DNA from: a virus
Taxonomy: Duplodnaviria > Heunggongvirae > Uroviricota > Caudoviricetes
Length of the DNA: 14,286 nt
Virus record (IMG/VR): IMGVR_UViG_2711768074_000014
Reading direction: 5' to 3' (one strand)
The notes beneath the pieces are model-generated. The model did no database searches and was not told where the DNA came from. It was given only the letters and a program-made list of their open reading frames with translations. How positions within the stretch are numbered: the stretch's first letter is position 1; the number at the start of each line of letters is the position of its first letter. Shown piece after piece: positions 2,670 through 8,597 of the stretch. A program made the position numbers and the translations under genes.

Positions 2670-2700
2670 TCACGCGATTACACCGCATTGCGGTATCAAC

Positions 2701-2777
2701 GCGCCCTTAGCTCAGTTGGATAGAGCAACGACCTTCTAAGTCGTGGGCCGCAGGTTCGAATCCTGCAGGGCGCGCCA
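2701..2777 (+). tRNA. argU: tRNA-Arg, anticodon UCU (reads AGA), 77 nt with encoded CCA
   Basis: Hand-folded cloverleaf: acceptor stem GCGCCCT/AGGGCGC, D arm TAGCTCAGTTGGATAGAGCA, anticodon stem-loop ACGAC-CTTCTAA-GTCGT (anticodon TCT), T arm GCAGGTTCGAATCCTGC, 3' CCA. Confidence 0.93.
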
Positions 2778-2792
2778 TTACAATTCAATCAG

Positions 2793-3956
2793 TTACGCCT
2801 TCTTTATATCCTCCATAATTCCACAGTGGGACATATTTGGGACATTATCACCAAAAATGTCGTCTATTTTCCTTGCATGCTCTGTCAAATGATTAGGCGC
2901 AAGGTGAGCATACCTACGAACCATTTCTATGGACTCCCATCCGCCCATTTCCTGAAGCACAGATAATGGGACGCCTGACTGGATCAGCCAGCTTGCCCAG
3001 GTGTGTCTGAGGTCATGGAAACGGAAATCTTCAATTCCTGCACGACGACAAGCTGATAGCCATGATGTCTTGCTGTCGATGCGCATCTTCCTGACCGCAG
3101 GCGTTGATGTTCCATCTGCTCGCTTAGCCGCCTTGGTATGTACAAACACCCATTTGTGATGCTTGCCTATTTGATCACGCAACACTTTACAGGCGGTATC
3201 GTTCAGCGCCACACCAATGGCGCGGTTTGATTTGCTCTCTTCTGGATTCACCCAGGCAACTCGTCGCTGCATGTCGATTTGTTGCCATTCCAGATTTATG
3301 ATGTTCGACTTTCTCAGACCAGTTGCCAGCGCAAACTTGACGACAGATTTCAGTGGTTCGGGGCACTCATCAATAAGGCGTTTTGCTTCCTCCTTTTCCA
3401 GCCATCTGACTCGCTTGTTTCTGACCGCTGGTATCTTGATGACAGGCGCTTTTTCCAGCCACTTCCAGTCGCGTTCTGCAGCACGGAGAATGGCCTTTAT
3501 CATGGCAAGATGCTTTGCCTTTGTCTGAGTTGATACTGGCTTTGGTTCATAAACAGGCGGTTCTTTACCTTTCCTGATGGCGGCCTGAACTTTCTGTTTC
3601 CATATTTCTTTCGTCTTTCTGTTATGCATTCTGCTTACAGCAGAGTAAATCTTTGCCTCCGAGATATCTTTAAGCCTTATACCCTCAAAATGTTCAAGCC
3701 AGAACTCAATCCGGCTTTTATCTGAATCGAGAGATTTTTTATCAGCTTTTTCCTCAAGCCATCTTAGGCAGGCCTCTTCAAAAGTGACATCAGGTAAATC
3801 CCCTAGCTTTTCTACTCGCCAGAGTTCTGCTTTTCGCTTGTCGTGCAACTCCTGAGCTTGCCGCTTGTCCTTTGTGCCAAGAGATTCCTTAATTCGTTTC
3901 CCGCCCGGGAGCGAATACGAGGCATACCATATTTCATTTCTGCGGAAGAGTGACAT
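2793..3956 (-). CDS. int: Phage tyrosine integrase (387 aa), argU-site (DLP12 IntD-like) type
   Basis: C-terminal catalytic region ...[42 protein letters not shown]... carries the R..H-x-x-R...Y signature of tyrosine recombinases. Adjacent and antiparallel to the tRNA. Confidence 0.9.
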
Positions 3957-5504: not shown

Positions 5505-6329
5505 TCAGGCGGTGAAAGTACCAATAAAGGTTTCTACTTTGCTGTCTTTGAATTTCTCAACAAGCAGATCACGAAATTCGTTAGCCATTTCTTCCTGCAC
5601 CGCTTCCAGCTGAATAATGCGCAGAACCAGTACAGGACGATCGCCAGTGATAATGCTGAGGCGTAATTTAAACGGACGTTCTTTCAGACCTTCAAACGGA
5701 ACGCATTTAAATTCAAATGCCACTGGCATAATGTCTTTGGTCTTCGCTTCGACAGACTCCATCAGGGAGCGTTTGCCGCTGAAGTCATTATCTTCAAAAT
5801 CAGCGGTCTGGTTTGCTTCAATCGTGATTTTACGGACTGCCGCAGCCGCTTTTGTTGCTTGAATGGCGTCACCATTAGCATCAAAGCCCACAAGGTAGTC
5901 GGCCCAGTCTTCGATCCATTCTGCCAGTGACTTCTGGGAGTTACGCTCGCCGTTAACAGACAACAGAGCAGAGAACGGTGCTGTCTTTTTCAGTTTGAGA
6001 GTGGCAGTGTTATCTGCGTGACCTGGCTCATCAATAGTACCCAGGTTAAGCACACTGACGGCACGCATATTATCGGCATCGATAAAGCAGCGGGTGCCTT
6101 CATCTGCAAGATCTTTAGAATAACGGGTAAAATCATCGATGCTGGCAGTGGAAAGTGCACCACGGAAACGGAAGCGATTTAAATTAAATTTTTCCAGATC
6201 ATGAATGCGGAAATTCTCAGGCAATGCCACAGCATCGGCACCAATCTTACTGATAATTTCATTAACACTCTGAGCAGAAATAAGGGCATGGATTTGATTA
6301 ATTGCGGTTGCGTCTAAGTTCTGAGACAT
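5505..6329 (-). CDS. yfdQ: Phage protein of unknown function (274 aa), YfdQ-like (DUF2303-type)
   Basis: Long ORF with clear coding character; length 274 aa matches what I recall for K-12 YfdQ, and it lies between the yfdP-like and yfdR-like genes. Confidence 0.65.
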
Positions 6330-6394: not shown

Positions 6395-6757
6395 TTAACG
6401 ACCTGCTGCGCGGAGTTTTCCGTCAGGTTCACCGGCAAGAGTCAGTAATTGTCCCTGGTCTTCCTGCAGAATAGTCAGGCGACCACCGCGATTGACATAC
6501 ATCGGCGTTTCGGTGGTGTCTTCTTCGGAAATTTTCCCGCGGTTAGTTGGGCGAACATATGAGAGTTTGTGTTTGATTTTCACACGGTTCTCATCAAACG
6601 GTTCGATTTCCAGATTGAGTGAGACCTTCCCTTTGGTTTTCGTGTTCATCACACCGGAAGCGACCTCACTGAGAACTGCGCCGATTTTGGTTTCAAATAC
6701 GCCGCCGTCCAGCTCCCCGATAAATGCCTGCACATCAGTACTGCGTTCGCTAGCCAT
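6395..6757 (-). CDS. yfdP: Phage protein of unknown function (120 aa), YfdP-like
   Basis: Start set at ATG 6757 (MASERSTDVQAFIGELDGG...) with GAGGAG 7 nt upstream. The track ORF extends upstream to 6922, but that N-terminal part is Cys/Arg-rich and not protein-like. Confidence 0.6.
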   Translation of the reverse strand: MASERSTDVQAFIGELDGGVFETKIGAVLSEVASGVMNTKTKGKVSLNLEIEPFDENRVKIKHKLSYVRPTNRGKISEEDTTETPMYVNRGGRLTILQEDQGQLLTLAGEPDGKLRAAGR

Positions 6758-6806
6758 TTTGCTGCTCCTCATCATATCGACCCTGCAAGGTCGGTTGGTT
6801 TCTCCA

Positions 6807-6893
6807 CAAAACAGAGAAGAACACCTGCGGTGGCAGCCGCCCGGATGGATTGGGTTATGAGCCCGTCGTCCGGTGATGCTCTTCTCTGTTTTG
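6807..6893. other. Long hairpin: perfect 14-bp inverted repeat CAAAACAGAGAAGA / TCTTCTCTGTTTTG around a 59-nt GC-rich loop
   Basis: Arms at 6807..6820 and 6880..6893 are exact reverse complements. The region has open frames on both strands, consistent with GC-rich non-coding structured RNA or DNA. Confidence 0.5.
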
Positions 6894-6942
6894 CAAAAAA
6901 GGACGGTACCAGCCGGAAGCAAGGGTACAAACTGGTACCGCC
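6894..6942 (-). terminator. Candidate intrinsic terminator on the minus strand, upstream of the early-left operon
   Basis: Inverted repeat CGGTACCAG (6904..6912) / CTGGTACCG (6932..6940) with flanking G:C pairs. On the minus strand it is followed by UCC-UUUUUU (complement of the A6 run at 6895..6900). Confidence 0.45.
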
Positions 6943-7159
6943 AGGACTACACACAGCATAAAGTTGTGGTGCCGGGTGCCTCCCGGTGCCTGGCGAAGGT
7001 TGCACACCAGGCGGGTGGGTATCCACAGAAGGTCGACTGTCAGCCTCAACCTTAACCCGCGTGCGCTGAGCCGCATTCACCACAACGCTAAGGATTCTCT
7101 CTGGTTGAAAATACTTAGCTGTTATGTGCCTGCTTTTAGCCACATCAGGCGAGGTGGAC

Positions 7160-7227
7160 CTGGTTATTCCCCAACAACAAGGATTCGGTTAATCTGGATA
7201 TCCCCAACAACAATAAGAGTATTCAAT
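7160..7227 (+). repeat. Two tandem ~34-bp direct repeats sharing a perfect 13-bp core TCCCCAACAACAA
   Basis: Unit 1 7160..7193 CTGGTTATTCCCCAACAACAAGGATTCGGTTAAT; unit 2 7194..7227 CTGGATATCCCCAACAACAATAAGAGTATTCAAT. They end right at the candidate start codons of the orphan gene. Confidence 0.7.
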
Positions 7228-7251
7228 GTGATCGCTGAATTAACGGCAGCA

Positions 7252-7743
7252 ATGACGGCTATTCGTGAAACAGCCCAGATTGCAAAACTAATGAACGAGG
7301 CAAAAACTCAAGCTGAAGTAAATGCGGCTATTGGTGAGCTGAACTCAAAGCTTGCGTCTATTCAGCGCGAATGCGTGTCTCTCGTTGAACTGGTGGGCTC
7401 TTATCAAGAAATAAATGCTTCTCTCAAAGCTAAAATTGCAGAATTCGAAAACTTTGAGGCTCAGACGGAAGGCTATATCCTTAACCAACTTGAGTCGGGT
7501 ACTTTTGTATACTCGAAGGAGGTAATCGTGAACGGTGGCAGCATAACCATGCATCTTTGCCCAAAATGTTTTGGACAAAAGATAGTATCGATACTTCAAC
7601 CATTCCCGGTTAGCGAAGATGAGCTTTTTCATAAAAGCAGGTGCCTCCACTGTGAAAATAAGTTTCTGATGAATAAAAATCCGGATTACGTATCGCCTCC
7701 ATCCATTGAGGAGTTGTCCAGAAAACTTAACGGCAATCTGTAG
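7252..7743 (+). CDS. Orphan protein (~163 aa): N-terminal coiled coil plus C-terminal C4 zinc ribbon (CPKC-x26-CLHC)
   Basis: AT-rich ORF on the opposite strand to both flanking operons. N-terminus MTAIRETAQIAKLMNEAKTQAEVNAAIGELNSKLASIQRECVSLVELVGSYQEINASLKAKIAEFENFEAQ is heptad-like; C-terminus carries MHLCPKCFGQ...SRCLHCENKF. Followed by an intrinsic terminator. Start uncertain: ATG 7252 has a weak SD, GTG 7228 is the alternative; the in-frame extension back to 6964 is not protein-like. Confidence 0.6.
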   Translation: MTAIRETAQIAKLMNEAKTQAEVNAAIGELNSKLASIQRECVSLVELVGSYQEINASLKAKIAEFENFEAQTEGYILNQLESGTFVYSKEVIVNGGSITMHLCPKCFGQKIVSILQPFPVSEDELFHKSRCLHCENKFLMNKNPDYVSPPSIEELSRKLNGNL

Positions 7744-7970: not shown

Positions 7971-8597
7971 TTAGAGTTCGTATTGAACTCCTTTGACTAC
8001 ACCAATGATAAGGCAATTACCATTGATAGGGATGTTGGGATACCGAGGATTTAATGGCACTAAAAACTTTTGAGGGCCATCGATGACTAATTTTTTTACT
8101 GTAGCTTCGTTTGTTCCATCAAGTCGAGCGATGACTATTTTTCCATGACGAGGTTCTGCATCTGGATCTACAATCACTGTTGCGCCTTCTGGTATTGTTG
8201 GGAGGCCATTAGGGTTAGTCATGGAGTCACCTTTAACCTCTAATGCAAATGAGTTATCACCAACCTTTAATGATGTATCTACCCACTTGTCCACTTCACT
8301 AAACACTTCTGCTGCCCTGCACTCAGTAAACTGCCCAGCCTGAACCCACGATATTACAGGAACTCTGCGCATGTTTGTGACGAGTTTGCCTTCAAACTCA
8401 GCACCGTAAAGAATGTAATCTATTGACGTATTGAAGAACTTCGCTAATTTCGAAAGTGCCTCCCCGCCAGGGGTATTGATGTCTTTCTCCCAGTACCCCA
8501 CAGCAACGTCGCTTACTCCACAAAATTTACCCAATTCTTTCTGGGACGTTCTGGTAACTCTTCTCAGAGCTTTTATACGCTGACCAACCGTTTCCAT
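7971..8597 (-). CDS. cI: CI-type prophage repressor (208 aa): N-terminal XRE-like HTH plus C-terminal S24 (LexA-like) peptidase domain
   Basis: N-terminus METVGQRIKALRRVTRTSQKELGKFCGVSDVAVGYWEKD is an HTH; C-terminus ...ALEVKGDSMTNPNG...GATVIVDP...HGKIVIARL...ATVKKL has the GDSM serine and a downstream lysine. Divergent from cro. Confidence 0.88.
   Translation of the reverse strand: METVGQRIKALRRVTRTSQKELGKFCGVSDVAVGYWEKDINTPGGEALSKLAKFFNTSIDYILYGAEFEGKLVTNMRRVPVISWVQAGQFTECRAAEVFSEVDKWVDTSLKVGDNSFALEVKGDSMTNPNGLPTIPEGATVIVDPDAEPRHGKIVIARLDGTNEATVKKLVIDGPQKFLVPLNPRYPNIPINGNCLIIGVVKGVQYEL

Follow-up and report, generated by a model that had tools for sequence, protein, structure and literature searches.

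An STnc100-like five-way junction and a DicF-like module upstream of yfdP in a lambdoid prophage of Escherichia coli

Two known families of small RNAs (sRNAs) are related to the element described here, a non-coding block at positions 7157-6758, minus strand, of IMG/VR virus record IMGVR_UViG_2711768074_000014. This stretch of 14,286 nucleotides (nt), referred to below as the window and used for all coordinates given without another source, is a segment of an Escherichia coli chromosome with fimbrial genes, a tRNA-Arg(UCU) gene (2701-2774) and a lambdoid prophage integrated beside that tRNA. STnc100, which is identical with EcOnc27 and with sRNA103 of enterohaemorrhagic E. coli (EHEC), is an Hfq-bound sRNA encoded downstream of stx2B. 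PasD, a Northern-verified, Hfq-dependent sRNA of enteropathogenic E. coli (EPEC), is related to it (Zhu, Shabalina and Storz 2026, preprint). Hfq binding and base pairing of EcOnc27 and PasD are known from cross-linking and analysis of cDNAs (CRAC), sequencing of interacting RNAs after ligation (RIL-seq) and Northern blots. DicF belongs to the dicBF operon of prophage Qin. According to the paper on that operon, it is cut from a transcript starting at the DicA-repressed promoter dicBp, no internal promoter having been found; RNase III yields a 190-nt form and RNase E a 53-nt form.

The element consists of diverged members of these two families and is not a new kind of element. We lean towards reading 7157-6758 (minus strand) as a non-coding composite leader of the leftward early operon, in which an STnc100-like fold is combined with a DicF-like sRNA and the RNA is terminated or processed. 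An earlier description made from the letters alone (the sequence-only reading) had proposed a structured RNA here, for example an antitermination RNA, an sRNA or a processing site, or else a remnant of foreign DNA. The Rfam scan and the comparative alignment that it suggested were decisive, the former by a sub-threshold match to STnc100 and the latter by compensatory changes, and its wording "sRNA or processing site" came close to the reading preferred here.

The STnc100-like five-way junction

The junction was identified by Rfam family RF02076, by covariation and by R1, a covariance model built from the subgroup termed class II below. Its parts are the following.

7086-6963, minus strand: STnc100-like five-way junction of class II (dicB-leader type)
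7086-7078 / 6971-6963, minus strand: helix P1, GUUGUGGUG / CACCACAAC
7077-7075, minus strand: AAU between P1 and P2
7074-7063, minus strand: hairpin P2, the first hairpin after AAU
7060-7055 / 7016-7011, minus strand: P3, base helix GCGGGU / ACCCGC, enclosing variable hairpins
7010-6990, minus strand: junction helix P5
6986-6972, minus strand: hairpin P6 (CCGGG-AGGCA-CCCGG), which stacks directly onto P1's 3' strand

RF02076 (STnc100) matched 7116-6893 of the minus strand over its full model (1-206) with 40.3 bits (E 2.8e-7). A default Rfam scan is silent here because this lies below the gathering score of 47. The same sub-threshold match was obtained in phages SfV, SfIV and ST64B. As in STnc100, the closing helix was flanked by GGUGAAU and ACCGGGAGGCACCCGGCACC, the multi-branch layout was the same, the 3' strand of P1 carrying a directly stacked hairpin, the fold was succeeded by a single strand and an intrinsic terminator, and the whole was prophage-borne in Enterobacterales. 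GGUGAAU on the 5' side and ACCGGGAGGCACCCGG-CACC on the 3' side were both exact and enclosed the multi-branch junction. Detection worked in both directions, the Rfam model finding the window and R1 finding the canonical elements of class I (27-54 bits). In contrast, the P2 hairpin was GCGGCUnAGCGC instead of CCCCCnnnGCGGnGGGG; in place of a first hairpin of the form CCCCC-loop-GGGG(G) the window displayed UGCGGCUCAGCGCA, which defined the separate subgroup class II. The window further differed from STnc100 by its extra 5' hairpins H0 and P0, by having no recognisable promoter of its own, and by its location in the leftward early operon rather than downstream of stx2 or in the interval from the late promoter to the lysis genes.

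PasD1 and PasD2 of EPEC strain E2348/69 were likewise sub-threshold relatives of STnc100 (37.7 bits). The PasD1 RNA (NC_011601, 1060260-1060432) runs exactly from the 5' strand of P1 to the terminator, and the PasD seed, UGUGAG, is part of the linker that joins fold and terminator; the window carries GCUGUGUGUAGUCC there. Unlike the window, PasD displayed a degenerate P6/P1 sequence (GCGGGAGGCGCCAUGCG) and no R1 match at E 0.01 or better; it adjoins holin and lysozyme genes, and its linker and terminator are not DicF-like. PasB, considered as an identity for the element, was rejected: this RNA of 83 nt is located within a structural operon, and its probe sequence is unrelated.

An alignment with Salmonella, Cronobacter and P1-like phages contained two invariant strings, GUUGYGGUGAAUGCGGCUnAGCGCACGCGGG and ACCGGGARGCACCCGGCACCRCAAC, separated by a variable middle. 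Among 12 class II sequences, 97.3 % of the cells were paired versus 30-50 % in slid controls, and nine pairs were changed on both sides (two in P1, three in P3 and four in P5); the covariation score was reached by none of 500 shuffles. The P6 arms were CCGGG/CCCGG in 20 distinct sequences, CCUGG/CCAGG in another 37 and mixed in none. Over 173 distinct sequences of classes I and II, pair 5 of P1 was U-A in 87, C-G in 64 and U-G in 18 (98 % paired versus 78 % with random partners), while pairs 8 and 9 were paired in 69 % and 68 % versus 39 % and 44 %. The five-way junction appeared in the minimum free energy (MFE) folds of nearly all class II sequences. P2 and the P6 loop (AGGCA) were invariant in class II across genera, and the junction motif was invariant in more than 170 distinct elements. 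R1 gave a single match in the window (139 bits), 73-100 bits with class II sequences outside its seed and 25.8 bits with an allele of phage mEp460. The presence of 11 G-U cells assigned the RNA to the minus strand. Together with the terminators, these G-U pairs settled a strand that had been left unassigned before.

The three repeats of the sequence-only reading were all found and are three different modules of one leader. GGTGCC repeats, present at 6972-6991, are the two arms of the 5-base-pair (bp) hairpin CCGGG-AGGCA-CCCGG of the minus strand. The second hairpin, a perfect 9-bp one at 6904-6912 / 6932-6940, is that of the terminator described below, and the perfect 14-bp inverted repeat (6807-6820 / 6880-6893, 59 nt between the arms) extends to 24-nt arms with 83 % complementarity. 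The block was also GC-rich as stated (guanine plus cytosine fraction 0.55-0.56 versus 0.39-0.46 in the flanks). A 20-nt core motif occurred once in the window and in 0 of 200 shuffles. That the repeats and the block are beyond chance is shown by their conservation and covariation in more than 170 distinct relatives, and the STnc100-like fold with its helix covariation bears out the structured RNA that had been proposed.

Two side observations concern other copies of the fold. In phage P1 (locus L009) a weak second R1 match (2684-2799, minus strand; 20.6 bits, E 0.004) was located within and antisense to upl, about 150 nt upstream of the tciA-leader copy; an annotated dicF-like region is found further upstream in the same direction. 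The mEp460 allele (L010, 2670-2822, minus strand), a third allele of the fold also encountered in Stx2c and cdtI phages, has retained P0, P1 and the terminator. The loops of P2 (AGGCUGAU) and P6 (AGAUCAGCA) were both changed in this allele and are now complementary over six nt (GCUGAU / AUCAGC), which suggests a loop-loop contact in the family; its linker seed differed as well (AGCCACUGCUUU).

The DicF-like module and the flanking hairpins

On either side of the junction the leader was composed of the following parts.

7157-7121, minus strand: conserved 5' segment with hairpin H0 (GCCUG 7150-7146 / CAGGC 7132-7128), followed by ACAUAAC (7127-7121)
7120-7087, minus strand: hairpin P0, AGCUAAGUAUU.../...GAAUCCUUAGC, loop of 7 nt, from an inverted repeat and the MFE fold
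6962-6941, minus strand: single-stranded linker of 22 nt, UUUAUGCUGUGUGUAGUCCUGG, equivalent to the DicF-like 5' single strand (seed) and placed like the PasD seed
6940-6932 / 6912-6904, minus strand: DicF-like terminator hairpin, CGGUACCAG / CUGGUACCG, 9 bp
6903-6894, minus strand: U-tract UCCUUUUUUG, directly after that hairpin
6900-6800, minus strand: long near-perfect hairpin of about 100 nt, with the 14-bp repeat as its core and, at its base, the U-tract paired with GUGGAGAA
6793-6778, minus strand: small hairpin CGACC-UUGCAG-GGUCG, preceding the Shine-Dalgarno sequence (SD) of yfdP
6770-6765, minus strand: SD GAGGAG, ribosome-binding region of yfdP

Because UCCUUUUUUG follows it on the minus strand, the second hairpin reads as an intrinsic terminator; hairpin and U-tract (6903-6894) fold with -20.5 kcal/mol. 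The DicF model (RF00039) gave a weak full-length match at 6901-6955 of the minus strand (15.7 bits, E 1.2). The window sequence UGGCGGUACCAGUUUGUAC resembles UGGCGGUAUCAGUUUUAC of DicF over a near-identical 19-nt stretch, and four of 1000 shuffles did as well in local alignment to K-12 DicF. The 30 nt at 6958-6929 (UGCUGUGUGUAGUCCUGGCGGUACCAGUUU) were 93 % identical to the DicF-like RNA located upstream of the fold in kilR-type loci, an RNA scoring 39.1 bits with the DicF model (76.7 for K-12 DicF itself). A 5' single strand, a nested-stem hairpin starting with GGCGGUAYCAG, a U-tract and a lambdoid leftward operon, all characteristic of DicF, were found together in the window. Judged by sequence similarity, with the 30-nt kilR-type identity as the decisive point, linker and terminator derive from a DicF-like sRNA.

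The seed AUUGCUGUGUG(U/A)AGUC was kept in ST64B and in Cronobacter phage phiES15, though their terminator hairpins have unrelated sequences, as would be expected of a functional single-stranded seed. Three unrelated terminators, each a hairpin with a U-run, stood at one and the same position in these two phages and the window. A riboswitch-like antiterminator, formed by the 5' strand of P5 with the 5' arm of the terminator, was considered and dropped, as this pairing was absent from ST64B when read from the sequences.

Prophage Qin displays the same two adjacent modules in a repressor-controlled leftward operon, and the nested-stem layout is common to both. The order is inverted, DicF preceding the fold in the Qin and Rac types and the fold preceding the DicF-like module in the window. 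The window also differs from Qin DicF in its seed, whose complementarity to ftsZ was not above shuffles, and from the Qin operon in having yfdP, which is not a known division inhibitor, as the downstream gene and in the addition of the 100-nt hairpin.

That long hairpin can form only in read-through RNA, since its base includes the terminator U-tract. The leader 6903-6758 (146 nt) folded with -60.4 kcal/mol (z -5.2 versus dinucleotide shuffles). As read from alignments, the hairpin was kept in ST64B and sal3 with 83 % identity and pairing-preserving changes. It was absent from the yfdP homologues L095 and L099, which also lacked the terminator, and was therefore considered an added module. In mEp460, Stx2c and cdtI phages, long hairpin and terminator were common with the window while the fold allele was different. 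The long hairpin may be an RNase III-type processing or stabilising site. Its interpretation as a dispersed repeat resembling a miniature inverted-repeat transposable element was rejected, as it was found at a median of one place per genome and was always tied to yfdP. The small hairpin after it covaries around a UGCAG loop, its stems being different in L095 (GGCAG/CUGCC), ST64B (GGCGG/CCGCC) and also L046. Prophage CPS-53 of E. coli K-12 was discarded as a model of the yfdP leader; the element is missing from it, and homology begins no earlier than the SD.

In phiES15, identity was 97 % over 38 nt of the 5' segment versus 76 % in the remainder of the element; upstream of dicF/dicB- and kilR-type loci the segment was found with 89-92 % identity. 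The H0 stem covaries (GCCUG/CAGGC in the window, GCUCC/GGAGC in P1, GCCGG/CCGGC in SJ46 and GCCCGG/CCGGGC in L140). Since it contains this covarying hairpin, the 38-nt conserved segment is probably RNA and not a promoter. The P0 loop extended to about 100 nt in relatives, in which the helix was also preserved with another sequence (GAGAGCAUU / AAUGCUCUC). A boxA-like string just 5' of the fold was rejected as a nut-like site, the string being the 3' strand of P0 and covarying with its partner. In sal3-type relatives (L006, L095 and L099), the P0 loop of about 100 nt carried hairpins resembling tRNA T-arms (GGUUCGAUUCC, GUCCGUUCAAUUCGGAC). ST64B (L003, 2880-2935, minus strand) and L099 displayed, as read from the sequence, an apparent intrinsic terminator CUGGCGG...CCGCCAGCUUUUU directly 5' of the element; with the terminator that follows, the fold is therefore bracketed by terminators in these two.

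Distribution, gene contexts and prophage setting

A scan with the 20-nt second string, limited to one genome per species, returned at least 120 stretches. Together with loci fetched earlier, at least 146 motif matches were gathered, nearly all in Enterobacterales. Among the matches listed, 104 of 146 were canonical class I elements (GGUGAAU, then a CCCCC...GGGG hairpin) and 23 of 146 belonged to class II, the window type. By eye, many class I elements had, a few bases ahead of the closing helix, a promoter of the form TTGAC.-17-TA...T, and a terminator followed that helix at 30-60 nt. When IMG/VR was then scanned with the 5' motif of class II, the total rose to at least 63 distinct class II elements.

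The fold of the 63 distinct class II elements was always on the same strand as, and just upstream of, an open reading frame (ORF). Their commonest neighbours were a DicF terminator directly upstream and dicB directly downstream (at least 48 loci, with the ATG 32 nt past P1). Other genes located 3' of the fold were kilR, encoding an FtsZ inhibitor (at least 18 loci), kil of phiES15, the TerB-like tciA of P1-type phages (at least six), ydaE-like genes (at least three), Rha-like genes and yfdP. The distance from P1 to the ATG was 32-44 nt for dicB, kilR, tciA/TerB and ydaE-like genes. The 174-nt spacer between dicF and dicB of K-12 Qin (NC_000913.3, 1649435-1649608; L255, 2936-3109) is itself a class II fold, which is unannotated. 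It scored 34.4 bits with STnc100 (E 1.4e-5) and 73.3 bits with R1, and its extended P1 of 21 bp ends 2-3 nt before the dicB SD. In the literature searched, no mention was found of a fold in the dicF-dicB spacer or in the kilR, kil or tciA leaders. The preprint on the Pas RNAs (Zhu, Shabalina and Storz 2026) does not mention dicF, dicB or kilR, and the dicBF papers do not discuss the spacer.

Sharing of the locus was mosaic: mEp460, Stx2c and cdtI phages shared only 6780-6943 and other phages only 6938-7102. The DicF-like and STnc100-like modules were shuffled as a pair. Class I elements also occurred as tandem arrays of two to three copies, 220-270 nt apart, in Superficieibacter and Enterobacter (L050, 6362-7009; L049, L068 and L045), and ran directly into a tRNA gene in two genomes (L102 and L128). 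The rightward early region of ST64B (L003, 5232-5308, plus strand) contained the isrK Hfq-binding RNA (64.3 bits, above Rfam gathering).

With 6700-7250 (551 nt) as query, phage PhiR49_1 (PV340568) was 100 % identical and Shigella phages SfV, SfII and SfIV were 97-98 % identical. At a coverage of at least 80 %, this locus was present in 1160 of 5426 complete E. coli genomes. The surrounding prophage features are the following.

2793-3956, minus strand: int, leftward early gene
between int and yfdQ, minus strand: yfdT, an EaE-like gene and yfdR, leftward early genes
5505-6329, minus strand: yfdQ, leftward early gene
6395-6757, minus strand: yfdP (ATG 6757-6755, start according to PGAP), 120 amino acids, phrog_204, function unknown; first protein gene downstream of the element
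7228-7743, plus strand: ORF of unknown function between the element and the candidate leftward early promoter (PL), convergent to the PL transcript
7801-7782: hairpin, terminator for the plus-strand ORF 7228-7743; on the minus strand a boxA follows directly
7917-7889, minus strand: candidate PL, TTGTCA-17-TAGATT, just left of cI, from a consensus scan
7971-8597, minus strand: cI-type repressor gene, right of the candidate PL

From this gene order, with int to yfdP running leftward and cI to the right, it follows that the block 6780-7100 belongs to the leader of the leftward early genes, in keeping with the position given in the sequence-only reading. The element is located about 0.7-0.9 kb from the candidate PL. 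After that promoter, a leader segment of about 60 nt (7873-7814, minus strand; GAACAGGCAGGACGCCCACGAAGUAGCCGCC...GGAUGAUUCG) was kept to 81-100 % in SfV, SfII, ST64B and phages of Klebsiella, Pantoea, Yersinia and Pectobacterium, and occurred 5' of class II elements in several genomes; it displayed no Rfam match and no similarity to HK022. The perfect rrn-type boxA GCUCUUUAACAA (7780-7769, minus strand) was the sole match in the window, 0.09 being expected by chance, and could be a Nus-factor antitermination signal of the leftward transcript. Two exact 13-bp direct repeats, TCCCCAACAACAA, were located 33 bp apart (7168-7180 and 7201-7213) between the element and the plus-strand ORF. AAGGAT beside them is similar to the SD (AAGGA) of a divergent gene in relatives L023 and phiES15; because of this resemblance, the repeat may be a duplicated remnant of the start region of that gene.

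Candidate mode of action, alternatives and meaning

By analogy with the Qin dicBF operon, PasD and STnc100, the composite leader would work as follows. Transcription would start from a cI-controlled leftward promoter about 0.9 kb upstream (candidate 7917-7889), a distant promoter being assumed because none is recognisable next to the element. Most polymerases would stop at 6894. RNase E would cut the AU-rich linker, and RNase III might cut at P0 or in the long hairpin, so that the products would be a DicF-like sRNA (about 70 nt), a structured RNA (about 230 nt) or both. This DicF-like RNA would bind Hfq via the U-tail of its terminator and act in trans via the conserved seed UGCUGUGUGUAGUCC, on targets that apparently do not include ftsZ. 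The fraction of transcripts reading through would carry the long hairpin and express yfdP through int.

Several observations weigh against this reading. The junction scored below the Rfam gathering threshold (47 bits) and the linker and terminator below that of DicF (48 bits). No convincing sigma-70-like promoter was found next to the element, within 7087-7226, by consensus scan or by eye across relatives. A transcript starting at the candidate PL would have to traverse the convergent ORF 7228-7743 in antisense; no transcript record for the locus was found, and the literature on Salmonella ST64B gave nothing usable. In most relatives the fold is located directly before a start codon and has no terminator, which favours a role of the fold in cis. 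A search for seed targets inside the 14-kb window gave a best duplex within the range of shuffled seeds. At the ftsZ start region the duplexes of window seed and loop were no better than those of shuffles (771 and 291 of 1000 at least equal), in a crude test where K-12 DicF itself was only marginal. Finally, the segment 6903-6796 folded about equally well on either strand (-51.1 kcal/mol on the minus and -46.1 on the plus strand); folding energy therefore does not fix the strand of the long hairpin, and its role at the RNA level is an inference.

The main rival to the sRNA reading, with which it is not exclusive, is a purely cis-acting leader, in which the junction sets translation, stability or processing of the next gene, e.g. 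as the binding site of a protein or small ligand or as an entry site for RNase III/E, the short RNA ending at 6894 being an attenuation by-product. We consider this possible but rather unlikely as the whole explanation. It fits the position before dicB and kilR: the 63 class II folds are located just upstream of an ORF, with the short distances given above for dicB, kilR, tciA/TerB and ydaE-like genes, the K-12 fold sits between the DicF terminator and the dicB SD, and the loops of P2 and P6 do not vary in sequence from genus to genus, which is more than base pairing needs. In the window, by contrast, the fold is located about 190 nt from the yfdP SD with a strong terminator between. Class I elements are known Hfq sRNAs and stand on their own, having, as read from sequences, sigma-70-like promoters and terminators that belong to them. 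No conserved alternative pairing with SD or terminator was found either, the one candidate, P5 with a terminator arm, being absent from ST64B. A processive antiterminator like put of phage HK022, whose nascent RNA would bind RNA polymerase, cause read-through at 6894 and at later terminators and replace N, had been offered in the sequence-only reading and is improbable. Like put, the element is a structured nascent RNA in the early operon of an N-less lambdoid phage, upstream of terminators. Between cI and yfdP no gene resembling N was seen, ST64B has 815 bp free of annotated genes between cI and the yfdP homologue sb37 with apparent terminators before and after the element, and an element upstream of a terminator in a leftward early operon recurs in the window, SfV, ST64B and phiES15. 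What speaks against it is that HK022 positions 23000-33500, the stretch expected but not annotated to hold PL/putL and PR/putR, gave no BLAST match above noise and no R1 match, and that the window has a five-way junction where put has two hairpins. The element is also present in a single copy, has no counterpart in the rightward operon and is not promoter-adjacent. Most relatives lack a downstream terminator, relatives of class I are discrete sRNAs, each ending at a terminator of its own, and the separate boxA nearer the candidate PL would be a more conventional antitermination signal.

A functionless recombination scar, with mosaic joints and with GC-richness and palindromes arisen by chance, is less probable still. 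The locus is clearly mosaic and the order of fold and DicF-like module is inverted versus the Qin and Rac types, but each module was kept across genera with compensatory changes and the junction motif is invariant. Covariation contradicts the earlier idea of a foreign-DNA remnant. The least credible alternative is a degenerate protein-coding gene under the block. PGAP annotates a frameshifted hypothetical protein at 6772-7083 (minus strand), and one minus frame has no stops across 6780-7100, where ORFs overlap on both strands, which agrees with the stop-poor character noted before. The ORF at 6873-7055 (plus strand) matched phrog_3651 (E 1e-30, profile positions 109-160 of 162) and that at 6772-7143 (minus strand) phrog_33599 (E 4e-15). 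These signals have to be set against the comparison with Salmonella phage ST64B over 6794-7102 (77 % identity), where substitutions were flat over the three coordinate phases (18/26/26), without third-position bias, and indels of 19, 1 and 1 nt break the frame. The coding control, yfdP versus sb37 of ST64B, displayed 34/25/80 substitutions and indels of 12 and 3 nt. Pfam had no match for ORFs over the block, relatives outside E. coli contained 2-3 stops in every frame of it, and the changes follow a helix-compensatory pattern. Extrapolated from the match, the remainder of phrog_3651 would run antisense to yfdP. The block is thus non-coding, as the sequence-only reading had it, and the ORFs over the element are best explained as spurious calls made on DNA that is conserved but does not code for protein. 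Public annotations of the ORFs at 6772-7143 (minus strand), 6873-7055 (plus strand) and 6492-6860 (plus strand) comprise the PGAP pseudogene, SfIV_34, SfIV_35 and coding sequences of PhiR49_1. From these comparisons, phrog_3651 and phrog_33599 look at least partly spurious.

Roughly one fifth of complete E. coli genomes carry this locus, where pipelines call a frameshifted pseudogene or hypothetical ORFs and Rfam stays below cut-off; a correct non-coding annotation removes spurious proteins, including the matching parts of two PHROG families. STnc100/EcOnc27, PasD and the dicBF locus, treated separately in the literature searched, are linked here. That the STnc100 fold constitutes the dicB and kilR leaders, including the unexplained 174-nt spacer of Qin, should be new to specialists. 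Across more than 170 distinct variants, the junction occurs in free-standing Hfq sRNAs and as a leader 32-44 nt before dicB, kilR/kil and tciA, genes unrelated to each other that encode toxic inhibitors of cell division. It is a tentative idea, which we hold to be unlikely, that the five-way junction is a discrete functional RNA domain and not a mere scaffold of base-pairing sRNAs; its distribution would fit a site at which a ligand, or a factor from host or phage, binds and gates the expression of prophage division inhibitors. The locus offers an entry point to a DicF-like sRNA allele with a conserved seed and to the question of how toxic prophage division inhibitors are restrained.

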